Assembly (NCBI GenBank): GCA_017822615.1
Contig: GCA_017822615.1_4530.1
From: a phage
Direction: 5' to 3' (one strand)
DNA: 64,000 bases
Made by a program: the position numbers and the translations under genes. The notes below the pieces were generated by a model, which was given only the letters and a program-made list of their open reading frames with translations, searched no databases and had not been told where the DNA came from. Below, piece by piece: positions 8,567 through 33,147 of this stretch (positions within the stretch are counted from its first letter, which is position 1; every line of letters begins with the position of its first letter).

Positions 8567-8764
8567 ATGTTAGTCAGTGAAATACTACCTGACTCTAATG
8601 GTAATCAGATCACTATTGATTGGTTTCCTGGTACTGGTACACTAGATCTAACTGCTGAATGGTCTGGTGATATTTATGGAGAAGGTGTGTTATCATTGTC
8701 TACAGAACAAATGATCATCCTTCGTGACTTCTTAATTAGTTTAGATCTAGGAGAAAACAAATGA
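8567..8764 (+). CDS. hypothetical protein
   Basis: start moved to ATG 8567 (MLVSEIL...) after AGGAG RBS. Confidence 0.4.
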   Translation: MLVSEILPDSNGNQITIDWFPGTGTLDLTAEWSGDIYGEGVLSLSTEQMIILRDFLISLDLGENK

Positions 8765-9030
8765 GTAAAACTTCTGTTGAGTTTATCGAGAAATCCCCTG
8801 TTCCAAAGTTATACCGTTTATCTGAAATTGAACCTATGTCTGTTTTCTATTACTACAACTCAGAAGTAAATGAACAAGAACGGGACTACTACTTAGCTAC
8901 AGATACAGGTGCAGTTTGCTTAACAGGTTCTCGTGCAGGAGAATACATTGCAAATAGTCGTTTTAATGAAGCAGATTCCTGTTGGGCTAAGGTTGAAACT
9001 AAGATCGTCATCAACATCATCAATCATTAA
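8761..9030 (+). CDS. hypothetical protein
   Basis: 89 aa, ATGA overlap. Confidence 0.45.
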   Translation: MSKTSVEFIEKSPVPKLYRLSEIEPMSVFYYYNSEVNEQERDYYLATDTGAVCLTGSRAGEYIANSRFNEADSCWAKVETKIVINIINH

Positions 9031-18796: not shown

Positions 18797-19453
18797 ATGA
18801 CAATAAAACATATTTCTTTTGATGTATGGAATACTCTTATTTCTGCCAATCAAAACTATGCAGATGCACGTACGCACACTATTGCTACATATGGTAGAAT
18901 GTCTGAACGTGCGGCAAAAGAAGCATATAAAGATGCCAAAGAAATTATGGATAATGCTGCACTAAATGGGTGTGCAGAAGGTGTAGCATATGCATGGAAT
19001 ATGTTGGGAAGAAAGATAGGTTTAACCCCTGTAGAATCTGCACAAATGCGTTTTGAGTGTGAGCAATGGTTTCTTAAATTTCCTCCACATATCGCTTTAG
19101 ATTTGCCAGTTTGTTTGCTATACTTGTCTGGTAAATATGATCTTAGTATTAAAAGCAATACTAATTTTATATCTGGGAATATTTTGCGTCGTGCTTGTAT
19201 GTTCGACAGTTGGAATTGTTTTGAATTTATGCATTTTTCAGACGAACATCTGTTATGTAAACCAGATCCTAGATTCTTTGTTAGGACCGCCACATATTCA
19301 AGCATTCCTTTGAAGGCTGAAGAGATTTTACATGTTGGGGACAGCGAAGAATTTGATGGTAAATGTGTTGACATAGGGATTAACTTCTGTCATATTAAGA
19401 ACCCTAACGATTTACTAGAGAAACTTAAAAGAGGAGAAATTGTAAATGCGTAA
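18797..19453 (+). CDS. HAD-superfamily hydrolase (phosphatase/nucleotidase-like)
   Basis: N-terminal FDVWNTL (HAD motif I DxDxT-like) and C-terminal HVGDSEEFD (motif IV). Confidence 0.5.
   Translation: MTIKHISFDVWNTLISANQNYADARTHTIATYGRMSERAAKEAYKDAKEIMDNAALNGCAEGVAYAWNMLGRKIGLTPVESAQMRFECEQWFLKFPPHIALDLPVCLLYLSGKYDLSIKSNTNFISGNILRRACMFDSWNCFEFMHFSDEHLLCKPDPRFFVRTATYSSIPLKAEEILHVGDSEEFDGKCVDIGINFCHIKNPNDLLEKLKRGEIVNA
19368..19396 (+). promoter_or_regulatory. sigma70-like promoter inside 3' end of HAD gene
   Basis: TTGACA (19368-19373) N17 CATATT. Confidence 0.3.
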
Positions 19454-20273
19454 TCAAACTCAAATTTTTGCAAATAAATTTGATGACCTGGAAACTGCTA
19501 CTTTTGATATCAAAGACTATTCAAAATTGAAATTTGGTAGTAACCAAGCTGCGCGTCGTATGGGTAAAGAATTGGCACTTCAGTTTTTTGCTCAAGTGGC
19601 AATGAAACATATTGGGGAACAATTTGTTATCATCCCTTCTCCTTATAACCATGTGCACAATGCTGCAACAATGATGACAGATCATTTTATTAATTACTTT
19701 AATATGTTGCAAGCACAATATGATCAAGGTCGTTCAGCAGAACTGGATATTATTCATCGTAAAGTTAGCTATATCAACGATTATGGTTTCTTGGATAAAG
19801 CTAGTCGTAAGAAACTTATTGATGGGGATACATTCTACTGCAACAAAGAATTCTGGGGTGATAAGAAGCTTGTGTTCATTGATGATGTAAATATCACCGG
19901 AACTCATGAAGACAAACTGATTGAGATTCTTGATGAAAATCAAGTTAAAAATGATGTTTACTTCTTGTATTTTGCAAAATATGAAGGTAATCAAGCAGAT
20001 ACTGAAGCTAAACTGAATTTTAACTACATCAATACACCAGAAGCGTTTGTTAAAATGATTAATGAAGAACGTGATGCACAGTGTCTTGTTCGTCCTATTA
20101 AGTATCTTATGGGCCAAAATCACGAAGACTTCAAAATCATTCTTAGCCAATTGCCACACTACTATGTAGAGCAACTTTTCTTCGGATGTTTGGGAGAAGG
20201 TTACAACCGAATTTCAAAGTATGCTGAAAACTTTGAATTCTTGGATCGTTACACAAAACAACACATTCTGTAA
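19446..20273 (+). CDS. phosphoribosyltransferase (PRTase)-like protein
   Basis: KKLVFIDDVNITGTHED matches the type I PRTase PRPP-binding loop pattern. Confidence 0.5.
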   Translation: MRNQTQIFANKFDDLETATFDIKDYSKLKFGSNQAARRMGKELALQFFAQVAMKHIGEQFVIIPSPYNHVHNAATMMTDHFINYFNMLQAQYDQGRSAELDIIHRKVSYINDYGFLDKASRKKLIDGDTFYCNKEFWGDKKLVFIDDVNITGTHEDKLIEILDENQVKNDVYFLYFAKYEGNQADTEAKLNFNYINTPEAFVKMINEERDAQCLVRPIKYLMGQNHEDFKIILSQLPHYYVEQLFFGCLGEGYNRISKYAENFEFLDRYTKQHIL

Positions 20274-20286
20274 TAAGGAGCTAAAA

Positions 20287-20760
20287 ATGCTTAAAATGAA
20301 AACAGGTAATCTTATTGATGCCGCTAAAGCAGGTGAAGTAACTGTTATTGCTCATTGTTGCAATTGTATGTGTAATATGGGAGCAGGAATTGCTCCGCAA
20401 ATTAAACGAGCATTCCCTTATGCATATGCGGCAGATTTAGACACAATGGCTGGTGATCAAAGTAAGTTAGGTTCTTTTAGTTTAGGGGTGCCAGACGAAC
20501 AATCAGACCCTTTGGTATATAATCTATACGGGCAATACCGTTACGGATACAATGCTAAAGGTCGTCAGTTGGACTATGATGCACTTTACGATGCACTAAT
20601 AGCTATGGCTAATGATTTGCTTCTCCGTGACCAAAAATGTAAGATCGGTTTACCTATGATTGGAGCGGGACATGCCGGAGGTAATTGGGCTATCATCCAA
20701 GTGATGATTGAAGAAACTTTAGTAAAAACAGGTCACGATGTGACTATTTATAAACTTTAA
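20287..20760 (+). CDS. macro-domain protein (ADP-ribose binding/hydrolase)
   Basis: start moved to ATG 20287 after AAGGAG; VIAHCCNCMCNMGAGIAPQI and GLPMIGAGHAGGNW match macro-domain glycine-rich loops. Confidence 0.65.
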   Translation: MLKMKTGNLIDAAKAGEVTVIAHCCNCMCNMGAGIAPQIKRAFPYAYAADLDTMAGDQSKLGSFSLGVPDEQSDPLVYNLYGQYRYGYNAKGRQLDYDALYDALIAMANDLLLRDQKCKIGLPMIGAGHAGGNWAIIQVMIEETLVKTGHDVTIYKL

Positions 20761-21073: not shown

Positions 21074-22048
21074 ATGCAACTCGGTTTCCCAATTATTGAT
21101 GTAGTTGTTTTAGTTGGTATTTTAGCATTGTCTATTGGTATCGATTTCTTTGGTCATAAAGAGAATAAAGAAATTGGAATTAAATCTGCTTTGCTTTGGT
21201 CTGTTTTTTGGATTGCTTTAGCTTTAGGGTATTACGCATTCATTTGGGTAGAACATGGTAAAGAGTTTGCCGCGCTTTTCCTAAGTGGCTATGTGTTGGA
21301 AAAGAGTCTTTCTGTAGATAACCTAATGGTGTTCATGGCAATTTTTGCAAGCTTTGGAATTAAGAGCACACATCTCCAACATAAGATTCTACTTTGGGGG
21401 ATTGCAGGAGCCATTGTCTTCCGAGGTATTTTTGTTGCAGCAGGGACCGCTTTGTTTAACCTTCATTGGTCGGTCCAAGTGTTGTTCGGTTTGATTGTAG
21501 CTTGGTCTGCCGTGGCTATCATCAAAGGTGGTGACGAAGAAGAGGATATTGATTACTCTAAACATTGGGCTGTTCGTTTAGTAGGTAAAGTTATGCCTGT
21601 GCACAATGCACCGGATGGTGAAAAGTTCATCACCATTAAGAATGGTATTAAATATGCAACTCCTGCTCTTCTTTGTGTGTTTGTTATTGAGCTTACAGAT
21701 ATTGTCTTCTCTTTTGATTCAGTTCCGGCTGTGATCGGTGTGACACAAGAACCTCTGCTAGTTTATTCTGCAATGCTGATGGCTGTTCTTGGTTTACGTG
21801 CACTTTTCTTTGTGTTAAGTGTAGCTGTGAAATATCTGGTTCACTTAGAGAAAGCTGTTGCTGTGGTTCTGGTGTTTGTTGGTGCTAAACTTATGTATCA
21901 CCCGTTCGGTGAAACACTTCATGCCAAGTGGTCATTCCTCCCGCATGATATTTCCCCTAACGTAAGTCTGATGATTGTTCTAGGCACATTATCTCTTGGT
22001 GTTATTGCAAGCTTTATCTTCCCTGAAAAAGAAGAAGCTACTGTTTAA
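21074..22048 (+). CDS. terC: TerC-family integral membrane protein
   Basis: 324 aa polytopic membrane protein with the TerC signature EKSLSVDNLMVF. Confidence 0.8.
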   Translation: MQLGFPIIDVVVLVGILALSIGIDFFGHKENKEIGIKSALLWSVFWIALALGYYAFIWVEHGKEFAALFLSGYVLEKSLSVDNLMVFMAIFASFGIKSTHLQHKILLWGIAGAIVFRGIFVAAGTALFNLHWSVQVLFGLIVAWSAVAIIKGGDEEEDIDYSKHWAVRLVGKVMPVHNAPDGEKFITIKNGIKYATPALLCVFVIELTDIVFSFDSVPAVIGVTQEPLLVYSAMLMAVLGLRALFFVLSVAVKYLVHLEKAVAVVLVFVGAKLMYHPFGETLHAKWSFLPHDISPNVSLMIVLGTLSLGVIASFIFPEKEEATV

Positions 22049-23673: not shown

Positions 23674-24264
23674 ATGTATACCGAGAGAGACTTGCAACTC
23701 TTGTGGTGGGAAGTGATGCAGGAAATAAAAGAAGATTTTCCTGTTTACTACAACATGTTACGTGAAGCAGGATATAAAGCTTGTGTTAGAAACAAAGTGA
23801 ATAACTCTTTCGGTTGGTGCAACTACCGAGATAAAATTGTTGTTGTAAATTGGCACTTGCATAAGAACTCTACAAGAGATATGATCGTGGATACAATGAA
23901 GCACGAAATTGCTCATGCTATTGATGGTTGTATGGGTAAGTTTAGTAGACACGGTGCTCATTGGCAAAAACTGGCAGCAGAGTTAGGGGCTAATCCTAAA
24001 GCCACTTCCAAAGAGCCGTTGAACCACGAATATAAATATGTTCTTGTTCTGGTAGATAGGTTTGCGACAAGATGTGTTAGAGGTTATAATCGTAAACCTA
24101 ATCGCATGTACCCAGGTAAGCAACCTAATATGTGGTTGAAATCAGATAAAGAAGGGACCGAAGGAAAATTATGGTTGTATAAATGGGACGATTGGGTTAA
24201 AGTAGCTAAAGAGTACGGTGTTTCACCATATATAAGAGATGCAGAAGAGGAGAATGAAGAATGA
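23674..24264 (+). CDS. SprT-like zinc metallopeptidase
   Basis: HExxH motif in MKHEIAHAIDGC plus downstream His/Cys. Confidence 0.5.
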   Translation: MYTERDLQLLWWEVMQEIKEDFPVYYNMLREAGYKACVRNKVNNSFGWCNYRDKIVVVNWHLHKNSTRDMIVDTMKHEIAHAIDGCMGKFSRHGAHWQKLAAELGANPKATSKEPLNHEYKYVLVLVDRFATRCVRGYNRKPNRMYPGKQPNMWLKSDKEGTEGKLWLYKWDDWVKVAKEYGVSPYIRDAEEENEE

Positions 24265-25373
24265 CAAGTCCATTTTTAAAAGCAGCTACTGGCGGTCAGA
24301 AGAAGCCTGAAATGAGCGTATTTGCTGCAACAACAGATGCAAGTAAATCTGTATTCGCTCCAAGCGTGTTAGATGCCAGTCCTGTTTATGCACCAGCGGC
24401 ACCGCAAGAAGTTCCAGTTTTGCCTTCTATGACCCGACAAGAGATCGAAGAGATTGGGGCAGAGGCAGGAACAACCTTGCGTTCCTTGAATGCCGAGGTA
24501 TTAAAACATCAACGTAGTAATCAAGGCGATCAGATGAGTGAACGACTCACAGCTTTGATTAAACAGGCAAAACAACTTGATCCAAACTCTATTAAACAAA
24601 GCAAGGGTATTACTAAACTCATTAAAAAAGTTATGGGTATGAAAGAAGATCTGTTTGGGGAGTTTGATAATGTTAATAACCGTATTGAAGAGTTGGTAAA
24701 AAACCTTCAAATGGATATTCGCAAAGAAGAAGATTCCTTGGTATATCTTGAAAAGCTACATCAAGCTATTGGACAATATGCTGCAAGTTTGAACCGAGAT
24801 ATGCAGCTTCTAACAGCAACCTATGAAAAAGAAGAACAAGCTTTGGCTGCTCTTCCAGAAGATGCAGTAGAACAGCGACAAGTGATCCGAGATACTTTGG
24901 ATCTTCTGGAGATTCGTATTGCAGATTTAAAAGCATTGCGCCTACTGTGTGTCCAAATGGGACCGCGTGTACAAGGTATGCAAAAAGTTTCTGCAAGCTT
25001 AATGCGATCTGCGCGTAACATAGTAAATAATGTTATTCCTGCTTACTCTGCTAACTTCTCAATGTATATCGAGAGCTTACGTCAAATGAAAGCAGCAGAG
25101 ACGCAGAATAACGTTCTTGATGAATTTAACCTGGCAATTAAACTGGGTAGCGATCTTGCCACACAGAATCAGATCGAAGCAGCAGCACTGGCTAACCGTC
25201 AAGTGTTGGATATTGAAACTCTGCGTCACGATCAGGAAAACTTGGTTAAGATGTTGGAAGAAACTAACCGCATCAATACGGAAGCCCGTGCTGCTCGTGT
25301 TGATTATATTAATGAAGTTCAATCTTTGGAAGACGGGATGGTAGCTGCTGTGAAACGAGGGCTTGGTAAATGA
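24261..25373 (+). CDS. TelA-like (toxic anion resistance family) coiled-coil protein
   Basis: 370 aa largely helical; size, composition and ter-locus context suggest TelA; assignment by recollection only. Confidence 0.4.
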   Translation: MTSPFLKAATGGQKKPEMSVFAATTDASKSVFAPSVLDASPVYAPAAPQEVPVLPSMTRQEIEEIGAEAGTTLRSLNAEVLKHQRSNQGDQMSERLTALIKQAKQLDPNSIKQSKGITKLIKKVMGMKEDLFGEFDNVNNRIEELVKNLQMDIRKEEDSLVYLEKLHQAIGQYAASLNRDMQLLTATYEKEEQALAALPEDAVEQRQVIRDTLDLLEIRIADLKALRLLCVQMGPRVQGMQKVSASLMRSARNIVNNVIPAYSANFSMYIESLRQMKAAETQNNVLDEFNLAIKLGSDLATQNQIEAAALANRQVLDIETLRHDQENLVKMLEETNRINTEARAARVDYINEVQSLEDGMVAAVKRGLGK

Positions 25374-25939: not shown

Positions 25940-26502
25940 TGGGTTGTTTTAGCTTTTTGTGCAAAGAATCGGGCAAAGCTGCCCTTTCTACTTCTTTCGA
26001 CGGATCACCTTGTTATCTCTTTCTTTTGAAGGACGGTGTTGTTATTGAAGAGATGTATGGCAACTATGATAGTTATGGTTGTGTTTTCTCTGGAAAGGAG
26101 GATGAAAATGGCGTTCGTGAACGGTTCGAATGGGCTATGGATTGGGGTAAGGTTTGTGATTTAATGCATTCCTCGAATCCAAGGGATGGTATCGCTATGG
26201 TGCTGGAAGAGTATTTTACAGGTGAAATCCCTACAGAACAATCTGACGGAGATCCTAACCAAGGTTGGGGTGATGGCGAAGAAGATCCAGATTGTTTTTT
26301 CAGCACAGAAAAGAATAAGTTTAAACGTGTTGACAACCCTTATCACAAAGTGCATAATACTCTCATTGAAACAGAAGATGACAAGATGGAAATTGAAGAA
26401 GATGATCCTCTTGTAACACTTCCTATAAGTGAGTTACAAAAGATCACTAAGGAAGCTTACGATTTGGGCTTCAAAATTGGTAGAGGAGGTATGCGTGTTT
26501 AG
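25939..26502 (+). CDS. acidic hypothetical protein
   Basis: 187 aa. Confidence 0.45.
   Translation: MGCFSFLCKESGKAALSTSFDGSPCYLFLLKDGVVIEEMYGNYDSYGCVFSGKEDENGVRERFEWAMDWGKVCDLMHSSNPRDGIAMVLEEYFTGEIPTEQSDGDPNQGWGDGEEDPDCFFSTEKNKFKRVDNPYHKVHNTLIETEDDKMEIEEDDPLVTLPISELQKITKEAYDLGFKIGRGGMRV
26330..26358 (+). promoter_or_regulatory. sigma70-like promoter (internal to preceding gene)
   Basis: TTGACA (26330-26335) N17 CATAAT (26353-26358). Confidence 0.4.
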
Positions 26503-26773
26503 ATTCAATATTCAAGAAGAAAAAAGTCAGGATTTACCTATTGCTTTCGAAGATCTTGACGTAGGGGCCACATTCATGTATTATGATGCCTATGAAGACG
26601 CAGGGTTGGATACCTACCGTAACTTGGTGTTCATTAAAAATTCCACAAACAGTGCGATTTGTATTAATGGATCACTAGCACAACGAGGCTATACTCATTG
26701 CATCCCACCAGATACAAATATGGTGGAAGTAGATTTAGAAGTTACCAATATTACACTTAAGAAGGAGAAATAA
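26495..26773 (+). CDS. small protein, paralog A of a duplicated family
   Basis: GTG start after GAGGAGG; shares FxIxEEK...DLDVGxTFxY...GLD...EVxLxVTxITLK with 27795..28064. Confidence 0.45.
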   Translation: MFRFNIQEEKSQDLPIAFEDLDVGATFMYYDAYEDAGLDTYRNLVFIKNSTNSAICINGSLAQRGYTHCIPPDTNMVEVDLEVTNITLKKEK

Positions 26774-26774
26774 T

Positions 26775-27569
26775 ATGTCCGAGAAAATCAGCCTGAAAAA
26801 ACGTCAAGAAAACCTTGCTTTCTCTCTGAAAAAGAATAAGAACCTGAATGAAGGTAAGATTGTTCTTCGTGTAGCATGTGCTCTAGATATTTCTGGTAGT
26901 ATGCATGGTCTATATTCTAGTGGGGTAGTGAGTGATTTTGTAGGTAAACTGCTTCCTTTTGGTATGCTGTTCGACGATAATCAACAAATTGATATGTGGG
27001 CCTTCAATACGAGTTCCCAAGAGCTTACTCCAGCAACAGCAGACGTTTACGATGACTATGTTGGTAAATGTATGCGTAATGTTCGTATCGGAGGTGGAAC
27101 AAATTACGCCCCTGTAATGGCAGATATCTACGATGAGTATTTTGGCACTGTTACCAAATATATTACCACTAAACAAGTGGTACAAGAGGAGGCTCCAAAG
27201 AAAGGCTTCTTTAATCGTCTGCTTGGTAAAACTGAAACAGTATCTGTAGAGCGTGAAAAGGTTGTAGCTGTGTCTGAACCAGGTGCTGACGTTACCCCTG
27301 GTGTTGTATTCTTCCAGACGGATGGTGAGAATGGTGATCCTAGTGCTGTTCGTCGTCTTATTGAAGAGAATAAGAATAAACCTATTTATTGGTTCATGGT
27401 TGGCGTTGGTAATGAGAAGTTTGGCTTCCTGAAAGAACTGGCAAATGCTTATGATAATGTTGGTTTTATTGGCATTAAAGATTTAGACTTGACAGATTCA
27501 GAGCTTTATGACAAACTCTTATCTGAAGAGTTCGGAGAGTGGGTTGTTAAAGTAGGTGCTAAAAAATGA
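26775..27569 (+). CDS. vWA-domain protein (TerY-like)
   Basis: MIDAS motif DISGSM with downstream GGTNYAP; N-terminus KISLKK...FSLKK resembles TerD N-terminus. Confidence 0.6.
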   Translation: MSEKISLKKRQENLAFSLKKNKNLNEGKIVLRVACALDISGSMHGLYSSGVVSDFVGKLLPFGMLFDDNQQIDMWAFNTSSQELTPATADVYDDYVGKCMRNVRIGGGTNYAPVMADIYDEYFGTVTKYITTKQVVQEEAPKKGFFNRLLGKTETVSVEREKVVAVSEPGADVTPGVVFFQTDGENGDPSAVRRLIEENKNKPIYWFMVGVGNEKFGFLKELANAYDNVGFIGIKDLDLTDSELYDKLLSEEFGEWVVKVGAKK

Positions 27570-27814
27570 TCGACGAGCTTGCCTCTCAAGTCATAGAAAA
27601 TTATTGGCGCGAGAGAGAAGCTTTCATTATGCGCAGTCTCAAAGAGTATTTCATTGGGACTGTGCGAATGGAAGATATTGTAAGTAGAGTAGAGATTCAT
27701 GTATGGCCTGATTATGAAGAATGGGTTGACAAAGAAAATGAAAATGCTATAATTCTTCGTATATACAAACCGGAGATAACATTAGGAGGAAGAAGTGTTA
27801 AACTTCGAAATTGA
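27566..27814 (+). CDS. hypothetical protein
   Basis: 82 aa, ATGA overlap. Confidence 0.4.
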   Translation: MIDELASQVIENYWREREAFIMRSLKEYFIGTVRMEDIVSRVEIHVWPDYEEWVDKENENAIILRIYKPEITLGGRSVKLRN

Positions 27815-28064
27815 TGAGCAAAAAGTAAATAAACGATGCCTTACCATTAAAGATTTGGATGTAGGAGATACTTTCGTCTATGAAAATGCATTTGACGAAA
27901 ATGGTTTAGACCTTAGTGAAATCATTGTTTATTTAAAAGTAGATGATGGGGAAAATGATTATTCTGCTGTAGAACTAAACCATCATGCACAATTAGTATC
28001 AATCCAAAACACATCTAAGCTTTTGGAAGTAGAATTGACTGTAACTGGTATTACACTTAAATAA
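27795..28064 (+). CDS. small protein, paralog B of a duplicated family
   Basis: GTG start after AGGAGG; see paralog A. Confidence 0.45.
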   Translation: MLNFEIDEQKVNKRCLTIKDLDVGDTFVYENAFDENGLDLSEIIVYLKVDDGENDYSAVELNHHAQLVSIQNTSKLLEVELTVTGITLK

Positions 28065-28079
28065 TAGAGGAGACAAAAG

Positions 28080-28682
28080 ATGACTGATAAAATTTCCCTG
28101 AAAAAAGGTTCTAGCGAAAAAATTTCCCTGAAGAAAGTTGCTCCGGCTCTGAAAGAACTGCGTCTGGAATTCTCTTGGAAATCTGATTCTAAACTGGATC
28201 TGGATGTAAGTGCACTGGTTTGTCGTCACAATGCCGCTGGCAATCCTGAAATGCTGTCTGCACGTCATCTGGTTTGCTATGCTAACAAGTTTGATCCTGA
28301 ACGTTCTACCTTCGCTGGTGACGATGTTCGTGATGGAACTGGCAGCATGGAGCAGATTGATATTACTCTGGCTAAAATCTCTCCTGATGCACAAGAGATT
28401 GCCTTTGTTCTGACCATTGAGGATGATACAGGTCTGAAACGTTTTGGTCATGCTTCTGAAGGTATGCTTAAAATCTTCGACTCCGAGCGCAATGTGGAAA
28501 TTCTGGATTTTGACTTCCTGGCTCCTGAAGTAGCTGGCAACACAATCTGCCACGTGGCTTCCCTGGTTCGTGAAGATGGAGAATGGAAGCTGAAAGCATA
28601 TGGTGTAGGTAAAGCTGGTCTGGATATTTGCGATGTGGTGATGGCCTTCGGTGGTAAAAAAGAATGGTATGAATGTCCATAA
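28080..28682 (+). CDS. terD: TerD-family protein
   Basis: 200 aa aligns end to end with canonical TerD: N-terminal ISLKKG..ISLKK, LDLDVSALV, GDDVRDGTG, DGEWKLKAYGVGKAGL. Confidence 0.85.
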   Translation: MTDKISLKKGSSEKISLKKVAPALKELRLEFSWKSDSKLDLDVSALVCRHNAAGNPEMLSARHLVCYANKFDPERSTFAGDDVRDGTGSMEQIDITLAKISPDAQEIAFVLTIEDDTGLKRFGHASEGMLKIFDSERNVEILDFDFLAPEVAGNTICHVASLVREDGEWKLKAYGVGKAGLDICDVVMAFGGKKEWYECP

Positions 28683-28698
28683 TAATTAACAAATGATT

Positions 28699-28718
28699 TT
28701 GAGGGGGAGAAGTCCCCC
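28699..28718 (+). terminator. GC-rich hairpin after terD (weak terminator)
   Basis: GAGGGGGA-gaag-TCCCCCTC; only TT following. Confidence 0.35.
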
Positions 28719-28781
28719 TCTTGCAATAAAGCCTCTATCGTGTTATACTAGAAGTTCGTTAACTTAAAAAGGAGGCAAAAT

Positions 28782-29588
28782 TTGCTGATAAAAAACTTTG
28801 TAACAGTTGCGTTACTATCCTTAACTGCTTTTACATTTACACCTGTTGTGGCGAAAGCCGAAGCTGCAAACGTAAAAACCGCTAAAGTAGTTCACAAATG
28901 TACAAAGCAATATAATGATAAAATTCTATTAGCTTGTGCAATTTACGCAGAAGGTCGCGGTCTGGGTAAAAAAGGAATGAATGCCGTTGGGAATGTGGTA
29001 ATCAACAGAAGAAATGATGCCTACTTCCCTAACACAGTCAAGGGAGTCTTGTTCCAGAAAGGGCAATTCTCATATGCGAAAACTTTTAACGTGACAGAGA
29101 AAGATAAGTGGCAGGAAGCAAAAGCAATAGCGGAGCGTTTACTTTATTTAGAGAAACATTTTCCTGAATTGCGGTCTGTTTTAGATGTTACTAAAGGTGC
29201 TCTATACTTCAAGAAACGGAATATAAGGACACACTGGGAGCGTGATATGCGTCTTGTTTATCGAGATAAAGTGCATGGTTTCTATCTACCAAAGGGAGTT
29301 AAAATGCAAGAAGATAATACTGTTGTTGTAGCAAGTTACCTGGTTGTCGGTCTTACCGAAGAGGACGTATACTACACCCGTAAACATTTGGAAGCATACG
29401 CTACTTTGTTTATGGAAGATGAAAAGGATGTAGATAAATATAGCATTGATATGATCAACGACAGTATTTATCCTTGTATGGTTCTTAAAGTAGATGCTGT
29501 GCTGTGGGAGCGTTTTGCAAGGACTCATGATGCTGTAGAATGCTCCGCAGTAATGTCTCAAAACAACATTTTAGGGGAGATTCACTGA
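28782..29588 (+). CDS. cell-wall hydrolase (SleB/CwlJ-like) with N-terminal signal/SAR segment
   Basis: TTG start after AAGGAGG; hydrophobic N-terminus then LLACAIYAEGRG...VGNVVINRR...QKGQFSY matching the SleB-type hydrolase core. Confidence 0.5.
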   Translation: MLIKNFVTVALLSLTAFTFTPVVAKAEAANVKTAKVVHKCTKQYNDKILLACAIYAEGRGLGKKGMNAVGNVVINRRNDAYFPNTVKGVLFQKGQFSYAKTFNVTEKDKWQEAKAIAERLLYLEKHFPELRSVLDVTKGALYFKKRNIRTHWERDMRLVYRDKVHGFYLPKGVKMQEDNTVVVASYLVVGLTEEDVYYTRKHLEAYATLFMEDEKDVDKYSIDMINDSIYPCMVLKVDAVLWERFARTHDAVECSAVMSQNNILGEIH

Positions 29589-32203: not shown

Positions 32204-33147
32204 ATGGGACAAATAATTCTTGACAATCGTAACGGAATCAATTATAGTGTCTGCGATTTCCATAGGGTAGTGCTGCCTTACTCAAGGCAGTTCTCTTCAC
32301 AACCTAAACACAACGTTTTCGTTTTTAACGGAGTGCCAACAAAAGGTAAAGAGGGCTTTTAGCCCTTAAAAACCTGGGCTTTAAAATGGTTATGGATTTG
32401 GATGACTCTTTAGTTATTCCAAAAGGACACATGTTAGAAGGTATTTTTGAATCAGGTATTCGTGAACATTTAAAATGGTTTTTAGAGCACAGTGATCTTG
32501 TTACAACTACGACACCTGCCTTGCAAGTTGAACTTTCACAATACAATGATAATGTGCACATAATCCCTAATGGACTTCCTTACGATGAAGGTCAATTTGT
32601 GTTGACCCGTGATCGCTACTCCAAAACTCCATTAGTCTGGGCTGGAAGTGAAACACATAAACAAGATTTGGCTATCTTGCCCGATTTTGGTAAAGATCTT
32701 ACAATATGTGGTTTTCGTAGGGATTCTGAAGTTTTAAGTAGTCGTGAATGGTCTTTAATCAGGGAAAATGTAGCACCAACTTGTGTTTATGAAGGTGTAA
32801 GACCATATGCCAACTACATGGAATCTTACGATGGTCATCAAATCAGTCTTGCACCATTGATCGATAACGTGTTTAATAATGCAAAAAGCAATCTTAAAAT
32901 TCTTGAGGCAGGTGCTAAGGGTTTACCTTTAATCTGCTCTCCTCGTGAGAATTATCATACACAAGAGTTTAAAGATTTGTTATTCTTTGCTGAAACACCT
33001 TCCGAGTGGAAAGATATTACGGAATACTTATTAAGTGCTCCCGATGTTTGCATGGAGAAAGGATTAGCATTAGCTAAGTATGTCAGGACTCATTATCACA
33101 TTGATGTGTTGAATGAGCGTCGTAGACTTTTATTTGAGGAGCTATAA
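32204..33147 (+). pseudogene. glycosyltransferase paralog 2, interrupted by an apparent -1 frameshift in a TTTT run
   Basis: 52-codon N-terminal ORF (32204-32362) aligns with paralog 1 N-terminus then hits TAG; C-terminal ORF from 32386 continues the alignment in the -1 frame; junction at GGC-TTTT-AG (32354-32362). Confidence 0.45.

Follow-up and report, generated by a model that had tools for sequence, protein, structure and literature searches.

Bacteria, plasmids and phages commonly carry Ter clusters, which have been linked to tellurite, colicin and phage resistance. The Ter (tellurite-resistance / phage-inhibition) stress-response system was reportedly defined by Anantharaman, Iyer and Aravind in 2012. 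Here, we describe a Ter module in a 64,000-nucleotide (nt) stretch of phage DNA (contig GCA_017822615.1_4530.1 of GenBank assembly GCA_017822615.1), referred to below as the window, in which the genes for a stand-alone vWA-TerF-like protein and for TerD are each directly preceded by a small gene, A and B, respectively. As in the bacterial Ter system, TerC, TelA, the vWA-TerF-like protein, TerD and a ComF-like phosphoribosyltransferase (PRTase) are encoded in one co-oriented cluster, whereas the Macro and HAD-like components of that system have only weaker matches in the window. Compared with known Ter systems, a lineage of ~150-kb phages adds one or two copies of the small protein family PHROG 11278 next to vWA/TerD.

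Passages of two earlier papers describe phage-borne Ter modules with TerD, TerC, TerF-vWA and TelA, in jumbo phages (PMC7824862) and in Klebsiella phage phiKp34 (PMC8386662). Exclusion of competing phages or stress tolerance has been proposed as the role of the module in one of these passages (PMC7824862), and the small PHROG 11278 protein is not mentioned in the Ter-module passages of either paper. The presence of the Ter module in phages is already known; what is new here is the association of PHROG 11278 with vWA/TerD and the predicted SH3-like fold of the small protein. The best explanation as a whole, to which we assign a probability of about 0.7, is that the small gene alone, and not a two-gene cassette, was duplicated within this known module, and that its products are accessory factors of the vWA/TerD pair.

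Two small paralogs beside the vWA and TerD genes

The genes in question are arranged as follows (aa, amino acids; ORF, open reading frame).

26495..26773, + strand: small paralog A, 92 aa; GTG start; PHROG 11278; predicted SH3-like small beta-barrel
26775..27569, + strand: stand-alone vWA-TerF-like protein, 264 aa; DISGS metal-site motif; N-terminus MSEKISLKKRQENLAFSLKK, family-typical
27566..27814, + strand: 82-aa ORF, PHROG 22387; overlaps the start of B by 20 nt and contains a sigma-70-like promoter match
27795..28064, + strand: small paralog B, 89 aa; GTG start; PHROG 11278; next gene is TerD
28080..28682, + strand: TerD-domain protein, 200 aa; Pfam PF02342; strongly codon-adapted

The stop codon of A lies one base before the ATG of the vWA gene, whose product begins MSEKISLKK, and that of B lies 15 bases before the ATG of TerD, whose product begins MTDKISLKK. 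The original prediction, that each small ORF lies immediately before a gene encoding a KISLKK-initiated protein, is thus correct. The GTG codons of A and B are each found 5 bases 3' of an AGGAGG-type ribosome-binding site, and the annotation of Escherichia phage ESCO13 places both genes at identical positions as hypothetical proteins with ribosome-binding sites.

The two small ORFs had also been described as paralogs, both GTG-initiated, that share the motifs DLDVGxTFxY, GLD and EVxLxVTxITLK. Formal alignment bears this out. A full-length BLASTP comparison gave 32/93 identities (34%), 49.3 bits and an expectation value (E) of 2e-14, with all the quoted motifs present in the alignment, and both proteins match the PHROG 11278 profile end to end (A, E 4.2e-51, residues 1-92 on profile 1-92; B, E 7e-45, residues 1-89 on profile 1-89). 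The codon-aligned DNA is 51% identical. At third codon positions the identity is 32%, which is near random and suggests that the small gene was duplicated long ago. These data show that A and B are anciently diverged paralogs of PHROG 11278, a phage-restricted family of ~90-aa proteins. When a hidden Markov model (HMM) of the family was run on the 589 six-frame ORFs of the window, A (1e-43) and B (1.2e-33) were recovered and no third member was found, the next-best E-value being 0.59. An indexed search found 9 relatives and an exhaustive search ~14 small cluster representatives, of which eleven cover the full length (87-93 aa). The family had no match in Pfam, NCBIfam or PADLOC, and the single small proteins, used as queries, had none in IMG/VR.

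Two sets of candidate relatives were set aside. ORF 8761-9030 resembles the small proteins by eye, yet its identity in alignment is 16% and the HMM did not match it. The giant proteins (2,000-5,700 aa) that the exhaustive profile search returned with E down to 1e-26 were treated as motif-level noise. They are He_PIG / cadherin-like, DUF11, HYR and ankyrin repeat proteins (P0073, P0076, P0078 etc.), and their scores add up 4-22 matches to a D-x-D-x-G-D-T-x-x-Y-like strand, some of them only ~16 residues long. In the small family, whose predicted fold is not immunoglobulin-like, the acidic positions of this strand motif are not conserved.

Turning to the downstream genes, the vWA protein matches PF10138, the Pfam model built on the C-terminus of TerF (130.1 bits vs a cut-off of 29.4), and carries the sequence ALDISGSM, a DxSxS metal-site motif that is invariant in the vWA alignment. 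TerD matches PF02342 (98.5 bits vs a cut-off of 25.3; residues 5-179 on profile 3-177) and can be aligned over its full length with solved structures (2KXT, E 1.2e-15; 3IBZ, E 3e-14). Apart from PF10138, the only Pfam match on the 264-aa vWA protein is a weak one to PF00092. The true TerF fusions P0068-P0071 are 424-459 aa long and carry PF02342, in contrast to the window's vWA protein. In TerF, the TerD domain and the C-terminal vWA domain form one polypeptide, whereas TerD in the window is encoded by a separate gene 510 nt downstream of vWA. The best BLASTP segment between the vWA protein and TerD covers 13/29 identities at E 0.013 and involves ~20 N-terminal residues only. On this evidence, the vWA and TerD genes are not paralogs, nor is the vWA protein a degenerated TerD. 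An ancestral tandem duplication had been proposed, with one TerD copy later diverging into a vWA fusion. The duplication stands for the small ORFs but not for a two-gene cassette, since vWA and TerD share only the 13/29 segment. The fusion step falls away, because the vWA protein contains no TerD domain and the two proteins belong to PF10138 and PF02342, respectively.

The KISLKK...SLKK start is an old, family-wide N-terminal motif of both the vWA-TerF-like and the TerD families. The segment ISLKKGSSEKISLKK of TerD aligns with VSLSKGG--NVSLSK in 2KXT from Klebsiella and VSLSKGG--NVSLTK in 3IBZ from Streptomyces, and the doubled strand motif of these bacterial TerDs (2KXT/2KXV and 3IBZ) aligns residue for residue with that of the phage protein. 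All 11 of the 11 phage TerDs compared have the doubled N-terminal strand motif xSLxKG..xSLxK. Similarly, xSLxK / xDLxK motifs stand at the same place in 13/13 vWA-TerF-like homologues read. The motif precedes the vWA domain in P0042 (MSKVSLKKRSETLKVSLKK), in a Neobacillus protein (MTVIDLTKKAKIVLEKK) and in the linkers of true TerD+vWA fusions; in the TerF fusions P0068 and P0071 the same xSLxK...xSLxK segment is found before the vWA domain as in the window's vWA protein. A set of 11 phage TerD and 10 phage vWA genes has the same starts with or without a small ORF upstream, an example being the TerD of phi92, which has no B upstream and begins MTQKISLKKGSSEKVSLKK. We also observed that the xSLxK...xSLxK segment of vWA proteins (26775-26840 in the window) and TerF linkers resembles the N-terminal beta-hairpin motif of TerD; it could derive from a TerD strand pair or serve as an interaction motif common to both.

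Gene order in relatives and the origin of the second copy

The window comes from a Phapecoctavirus, a common E. coli phage. Over the queried 2.3 kb (26400-28700), its identity is 99.9% to ESCO13 (Phapecoctavirus, Stephanstirmvirinae) and 99% or more to 37 phage records, out of 124 that match; between 23525 and 28255 the window and ESCO13 do not differ at any position. The two-copy order A-vWA-~81aa-B-TerD was found in 65 GenBank phage records with B at at least 95% identity. It was also found in phiWec179 and PsgM04F, which are both diverged, in a metagenomic contig carrying P0074 and P0077 and in the IMG/VR locus L019. The order is kept in three diverged lineages, in which identity to the proteins of the window is 51-52% for A and 45-47% for B, and both copies together occur in Phapecoctavirus-like genomes only. 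Justusliebigvirus genomes, phi92 among them, and Klebsiella phage 05F01 have a single copy before vWA (small-vWA-TerD). In L008, L009, L012 and L023, four contigs that are more distant, the single copy lies between vWA and TerD. In L010, the small gene is immediately before TerD, at the start of the contig. All the small-family members with readable neighbours adjoin vWA and/or TerD on the same strand, a count that leaves aside the member on the 906-nt contig L011.

An unrelated second small family (MKFLIIYENVPETT... / ...VVSGFYM) was observed in the same two slots as PHROG 11278: before vWA in L006 (4653-4985; 110 aa) and between vWA and TerD in L007 (5744-6094; 116 aa). Neither these ORFs nor the other small ORFs at vWA/TerD (105 aa in L014, and those in L008, L012 and L013) matched the PHROG 11278 family HMM.

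In a neighbour-joining tree, the B-type genes form a clade with 100% bootstrap support and the distant genes located between vWA and TerD a separate clade with 90%. The A-type clade takes in phi92 with 84%, phiWec179 A with 76% and 05F01, weakly, with 55%. The simplest reading is a duplication before the lineages split and two losses of B. The small gene would have been duplicated before the two-copy, phi92-like and 05F01-like lineages separated, with B in the older position between vWA and TerD and A as the copy placed before vWA. B looks like the positional orthologue because the distant relatives have their single copy between vWA and TerD. Later, B would have been lost in the phi92-like and 05F01-like phages, which retained only A. 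A larger duplicated unit was considered and rejected, as the 82-aa ORF before B and the 187-aa ORF before A have no similarity (E 0.055); the 82-aa ORF is confined to genomes with copy B.

Several observations weigh against this account, both as a history and as a link of the small genes to Ter function. The deep nodes of the 90-residue tree have poor support (41-55%), which makes the order of events tentative. All the carriers appear to be related ~150-kb myoviruses, so the adjacency could be inherited synteny. Among the IMG/VR loci, which were gathered with the vWA protein alignment as query, 17/21 vWA loci have no small gene, one of them being L020, whose vWA is 69% identical to the window's; the vWA/TerD loci of L006, L007, L013 and L014 are also without the small family. 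Since most phage vWA-TerD pairs have no small gene, the pair does not need it. The small proteins are most likely dispensable, lineage-specific accessory factors of the vWA/TerD pair.

Because the deep tree nodes are weak, there is some room for an alternative history, which we find unlikely: B and the 82-aa ORF may have been recombined in from a phage with the order vWA-small-TerD, and A and B would then be xenologues and not local paralogs. That order exists in other phages, and B and the ~81-aa ORF are always found together, as one insert between vWA and TerD, where the spacer in phi92-like and 05F01-like genomes is just 28-72 nt. Moreover, B is not part of the clade that holds all A-type genes, that of 05F01 among them. 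However, B is not grouped with the known copies between vWA and TerD (own clade, 90%), the phages with those copies have no homologue of the 82-aa ORF beside the small gene, and no donor was found. The loss of B in two lineages fits the data equally well.

Another possible explanation, no more probable than an imported B, is that the small genes are unrelated to Ter function and are ordinary small early-gene fillers whose position reflects the inherited synteny of one lineage. The narrow set of related phages to which the family is confined, the many vWA-TerD pairs without it and the use of the same slots by an unrelated small family elsewhere are all consistent with this, as is a predicted fold common to many small uncharacterised phage proteins. 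On the other hand, the position of the gene varies and yet, in readable contexts, it always abuts vWA or TerD, with the same orientation and a spacing that would permit coupling. Both copies are also intact across lineages at only 45-52% identity, which argues for accessory factors of the vWA/TerD pair over passengers.

Expression signals, predicted fold and possible role

Three candidate expression signals flank the small genes and TerD.

26330..26358, + strand: sigma-70-like match TTGACA-17-CATAAT, 11/12; inside the upstream 187-aa ORF, 137 nt before A
27726..27753, + strand: perfect sigma-70 consensus TTGACA-16-TATAAT, preceded by TG; in the 82-aa ORF, 41 nt before B
28701..28720, + strand: G+C-rich hairpin, 8-bp stem, GAAG loop, no T-run; 18 nt after the TerD stop

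The match before A came from a consensus scan, which gave a total of 38 promoter-like matches in the region vs 25.0 +/- 4.8 in shuffles. The match before B is the only perfect one in the 64-kb window (1 observed vs 0.06 expected), and both of its hexamers are kept in phiWec179 and contig L017, whose B proteins are 45-47% identical to the window's. B-TerD looks like a strongly transcribed two-gene unit behind this perfect, conserved sigma-70 consensus promoter. The segment 28683-28735 folds at -17.1 kcal/mol (z -2.4); the hairpin at 28701-28720 received no call in the terminator scan and is a possible end of the B-TerD transcript. The arrangement at A is different in kind: its last codons (AAGGAGAAATAA; AAG GAG AAA TAA) contain the vWA ribosome-binding site, as is the case in A-type genes generally, and A is, therefore, predicted to be translationally coupled to vWA.

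Codon bias in the region is strongest in TerD, which has CTG for 18/19 leucines and CGT or CGC for all arginines. Its optimal-codon fraction is 0.64, compared to at most 0.52 for every other gene examined, and its G+C content is 0.45 vs 0.39 for the window. Such strong codon adaptation implies very high TerD expression. B has CTG for 0/12 leucines. Given its GTG start and unadapted codons next to the highly adapted TerD, B is probably made in far smaller amounts than TerD.

A was modelled with AlphaFold2 from an 18-sequence alignment, resulting in a predicted local distance difference test score (pLDDT) of 85.3 and a predicted template modelling score of 0.75; an 8-sequence alignment gave a pLDDT of 42.7 and was set aside. 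The model has five short strands and one short helix. Its best match in BFVD was the independently modelled B orthologue of phAPEC8 (template modelling score 0.82/0.84), followed by many uncharacterised small phage proteins with the same fold. The best fold matches include ribosomal L2, EF-P, eIF5A and the KOW domains of NusG/Spt5. The SH3-like barrels compared (ribosomal L2 C-terminal domain, FeoA, DtxR C-terminal domain, KOW, Tudor) have no sequence similarity to the small protein, with 4-19% identity for most matches and scores too low for a superfamily or function assignment. The small protein is predicted to be an SH3-like small beta-barrel, a generic fold from which no function can be read.

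As accessory factors, A and B would most likely serve as binding partners or assembly adaptors of low abundance, A as the specialist for vWA and B as that for TerD, in a module whose proposed benefits to the phage are the exclusion of competitors or the tolerance of envelope or chemical stress. A more specific proposal, which we consider doubtful, is that the PHROG 11278 barrels recognise the [IV]SLKK...SLKK segment of TerD and vWA and thereby control the assembly of these two proteins, for example into the sub-membrane structures that have been proposed for Ter systems; the duplication would have given one specialist per client, A for vWA and B for TerD.

It is also conceivable, at long odds, that the small proteins are RNA-binding translational regulators of the KOW/Sm/L2-like type that set the output of the gene immediately downstream. 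The fold matches to ribosomal L2, EF-P, eIF5A and NusG/Spt5 KOW would fit such a role, as would the placement of each copy immediately before its putative target, with translation signals that overlap or lie close together. However, the small proteins, when their sequences were inspected by eye, are acidic and not basic, and no conserved RNA structure was noticed, although no search aimed at one was made.

The 14-nt repeat, the gene junctions and the wider module

TerD contains a short direct repeat near its start.

28089..28102, + strand: 14-nt repeat copy 1, AAAATTTCCCTGAA; encodes K-I-S-L-K of TerD strand 1
28119..28132, + strand: 14-nt repeat copy 2, AAAATTTCCCTGAA; encodes K-I-S-L-K of TerD strand 2

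As first reported, the repeat is exact. The window contains exactly two occurrences of the sequence, spaced by 30 nt, where 0.10 would be expected. A one-base mismatch in the second copy of phi92 and phiWec179 shows that the repeat is not a conserved DNA element. The identical DNA can be attributed to a twice-used peptide written in TerD's single preferred codon set. We, therefore, read the repeat as the doubled motif of the TerD family combined with codon bias, with no fresh duplication.

The junctions between the small genes and their downstream genes are also similar at the DNA level, with 37 nt and 42 nt at 76% identity and a spacing of 1300-1305 nt. This similarity follows from the conserved C-terminal strand of the small family, the Shine-Dalgarno sequence and the two family motifs. 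The model of a tandem duplication of a cassette of small gene and TerD, in which one TerD copy later became a vWA protein by divergence or fusion while KISLKK was kept, could draw on these junctions (small-gene end, ribosome-binding site, ATG and KISLKK) and on the M-x-[DE]-K-I-S-L-K-K start of both downstream products, but it has next to no chance of being right and is already contradicted: the vWA protein has no TerD-like sequence beyond ~20 residues, the architecture of motif plus vWA occurs in Neobacillus, distant homologues and TerF linkers, none of them beside a small gene, phage vWA/TerD genes without an upstream small gene start alike, and single-copy relatives have the order small-vWA-TerD or vWA-small-TerD and never small-TerD-small-TerD.

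The co-oriented cluster as a whole runs HAD-like, PRTase, Macro, TerC, SprT-like, TelA, A, vWA-TerF-like, 82-aa ORF, B and TerD, and is followed by a cell-wall hydrolase gene. Its upstream members are listed below.

18797-19453: HAD-like gene; weak Pfam match, below cut-off
19446-20273: ComF-like PRTase; PF15610, E 6e-42
20287-20760: Macro-domain gene; Pfam match, weaker
21074-22048: TerC; Pfam match
23674-24264: SprT-like gene; Pfam match
24261-25373: TelA; Pfam match

The PRTase, HAD-like and Macro genes (18797-20760) lie just upstream of TerC, which suggests that a ~150-kb, non-jumbo phage carries a "nucleoside-like metabolite" arm in addition to the TerC/TelA/vWA/TerD arm. None of 9 cluster proteins matched a defence-system model in PADLOC-DB v2 at E up to 0.01. 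The phage TerD itself departs from the bacterial proteins at an acidic GDGDDE stretch, presumably part of the Ca2+ site, which aligns with GTGSMEQ (28245-28345, residues ~75-90). The phage segment aligned to Klebsiella GDN..G.GDGDDE reads GDD.VRDGTGSMEQ, in which some acidic residues are kept but the GDGDDE run is not. With GTGSMEQ in place of GDGDDE, the metal binding of the phage TerD may be altered.

Outside the identical segment, the window differs from ESCO13 by four single-base deletions, at 28702, 29293, 29996 and 32356, which may be sequencing errors or real frameshifts. The deletion at 29293 fuses the cell-wall hydrolase and the following 94-aa ORF into a 268-aa ORF (28782-29588; two PHROGs on one product), and that at 32356 breaks a 314-aa gene up into 32204-32362 and 32386-33147. 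The region was also observed in records labelled Campylobacter phage (e.g. MG065650.1 B15), Acinetobacter phage vB_AbaM_ABPW7 and Pseudomonas phage PsgM04F. B15 (at the protein level) and ABPW7 (at the DNA level) are ~99% identical to the window region, and PsgM04F is of the diverged phiWec179-like type, with a copy A 54% identical to the window's. The Campylobacter, Acinetobacter and Pseudomonas host labels of these records look doubtful.

For annotation, the lesson is that the KISLKK starts and the 14-nt repeat reflect family motifs and codon bias and are not signs of recent duplication. If the small genes are mere synteny passengers, nothing of general importance follows from their position. 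A small family that is found beside vWA/TerD only, and that is kept as two copies, would offer a cheap experimental entry point to how the Ter proteins cooperate. If the recognition of the SLKK segment were true, it would provide the first handle on protein-protein organisation in the Ter module.

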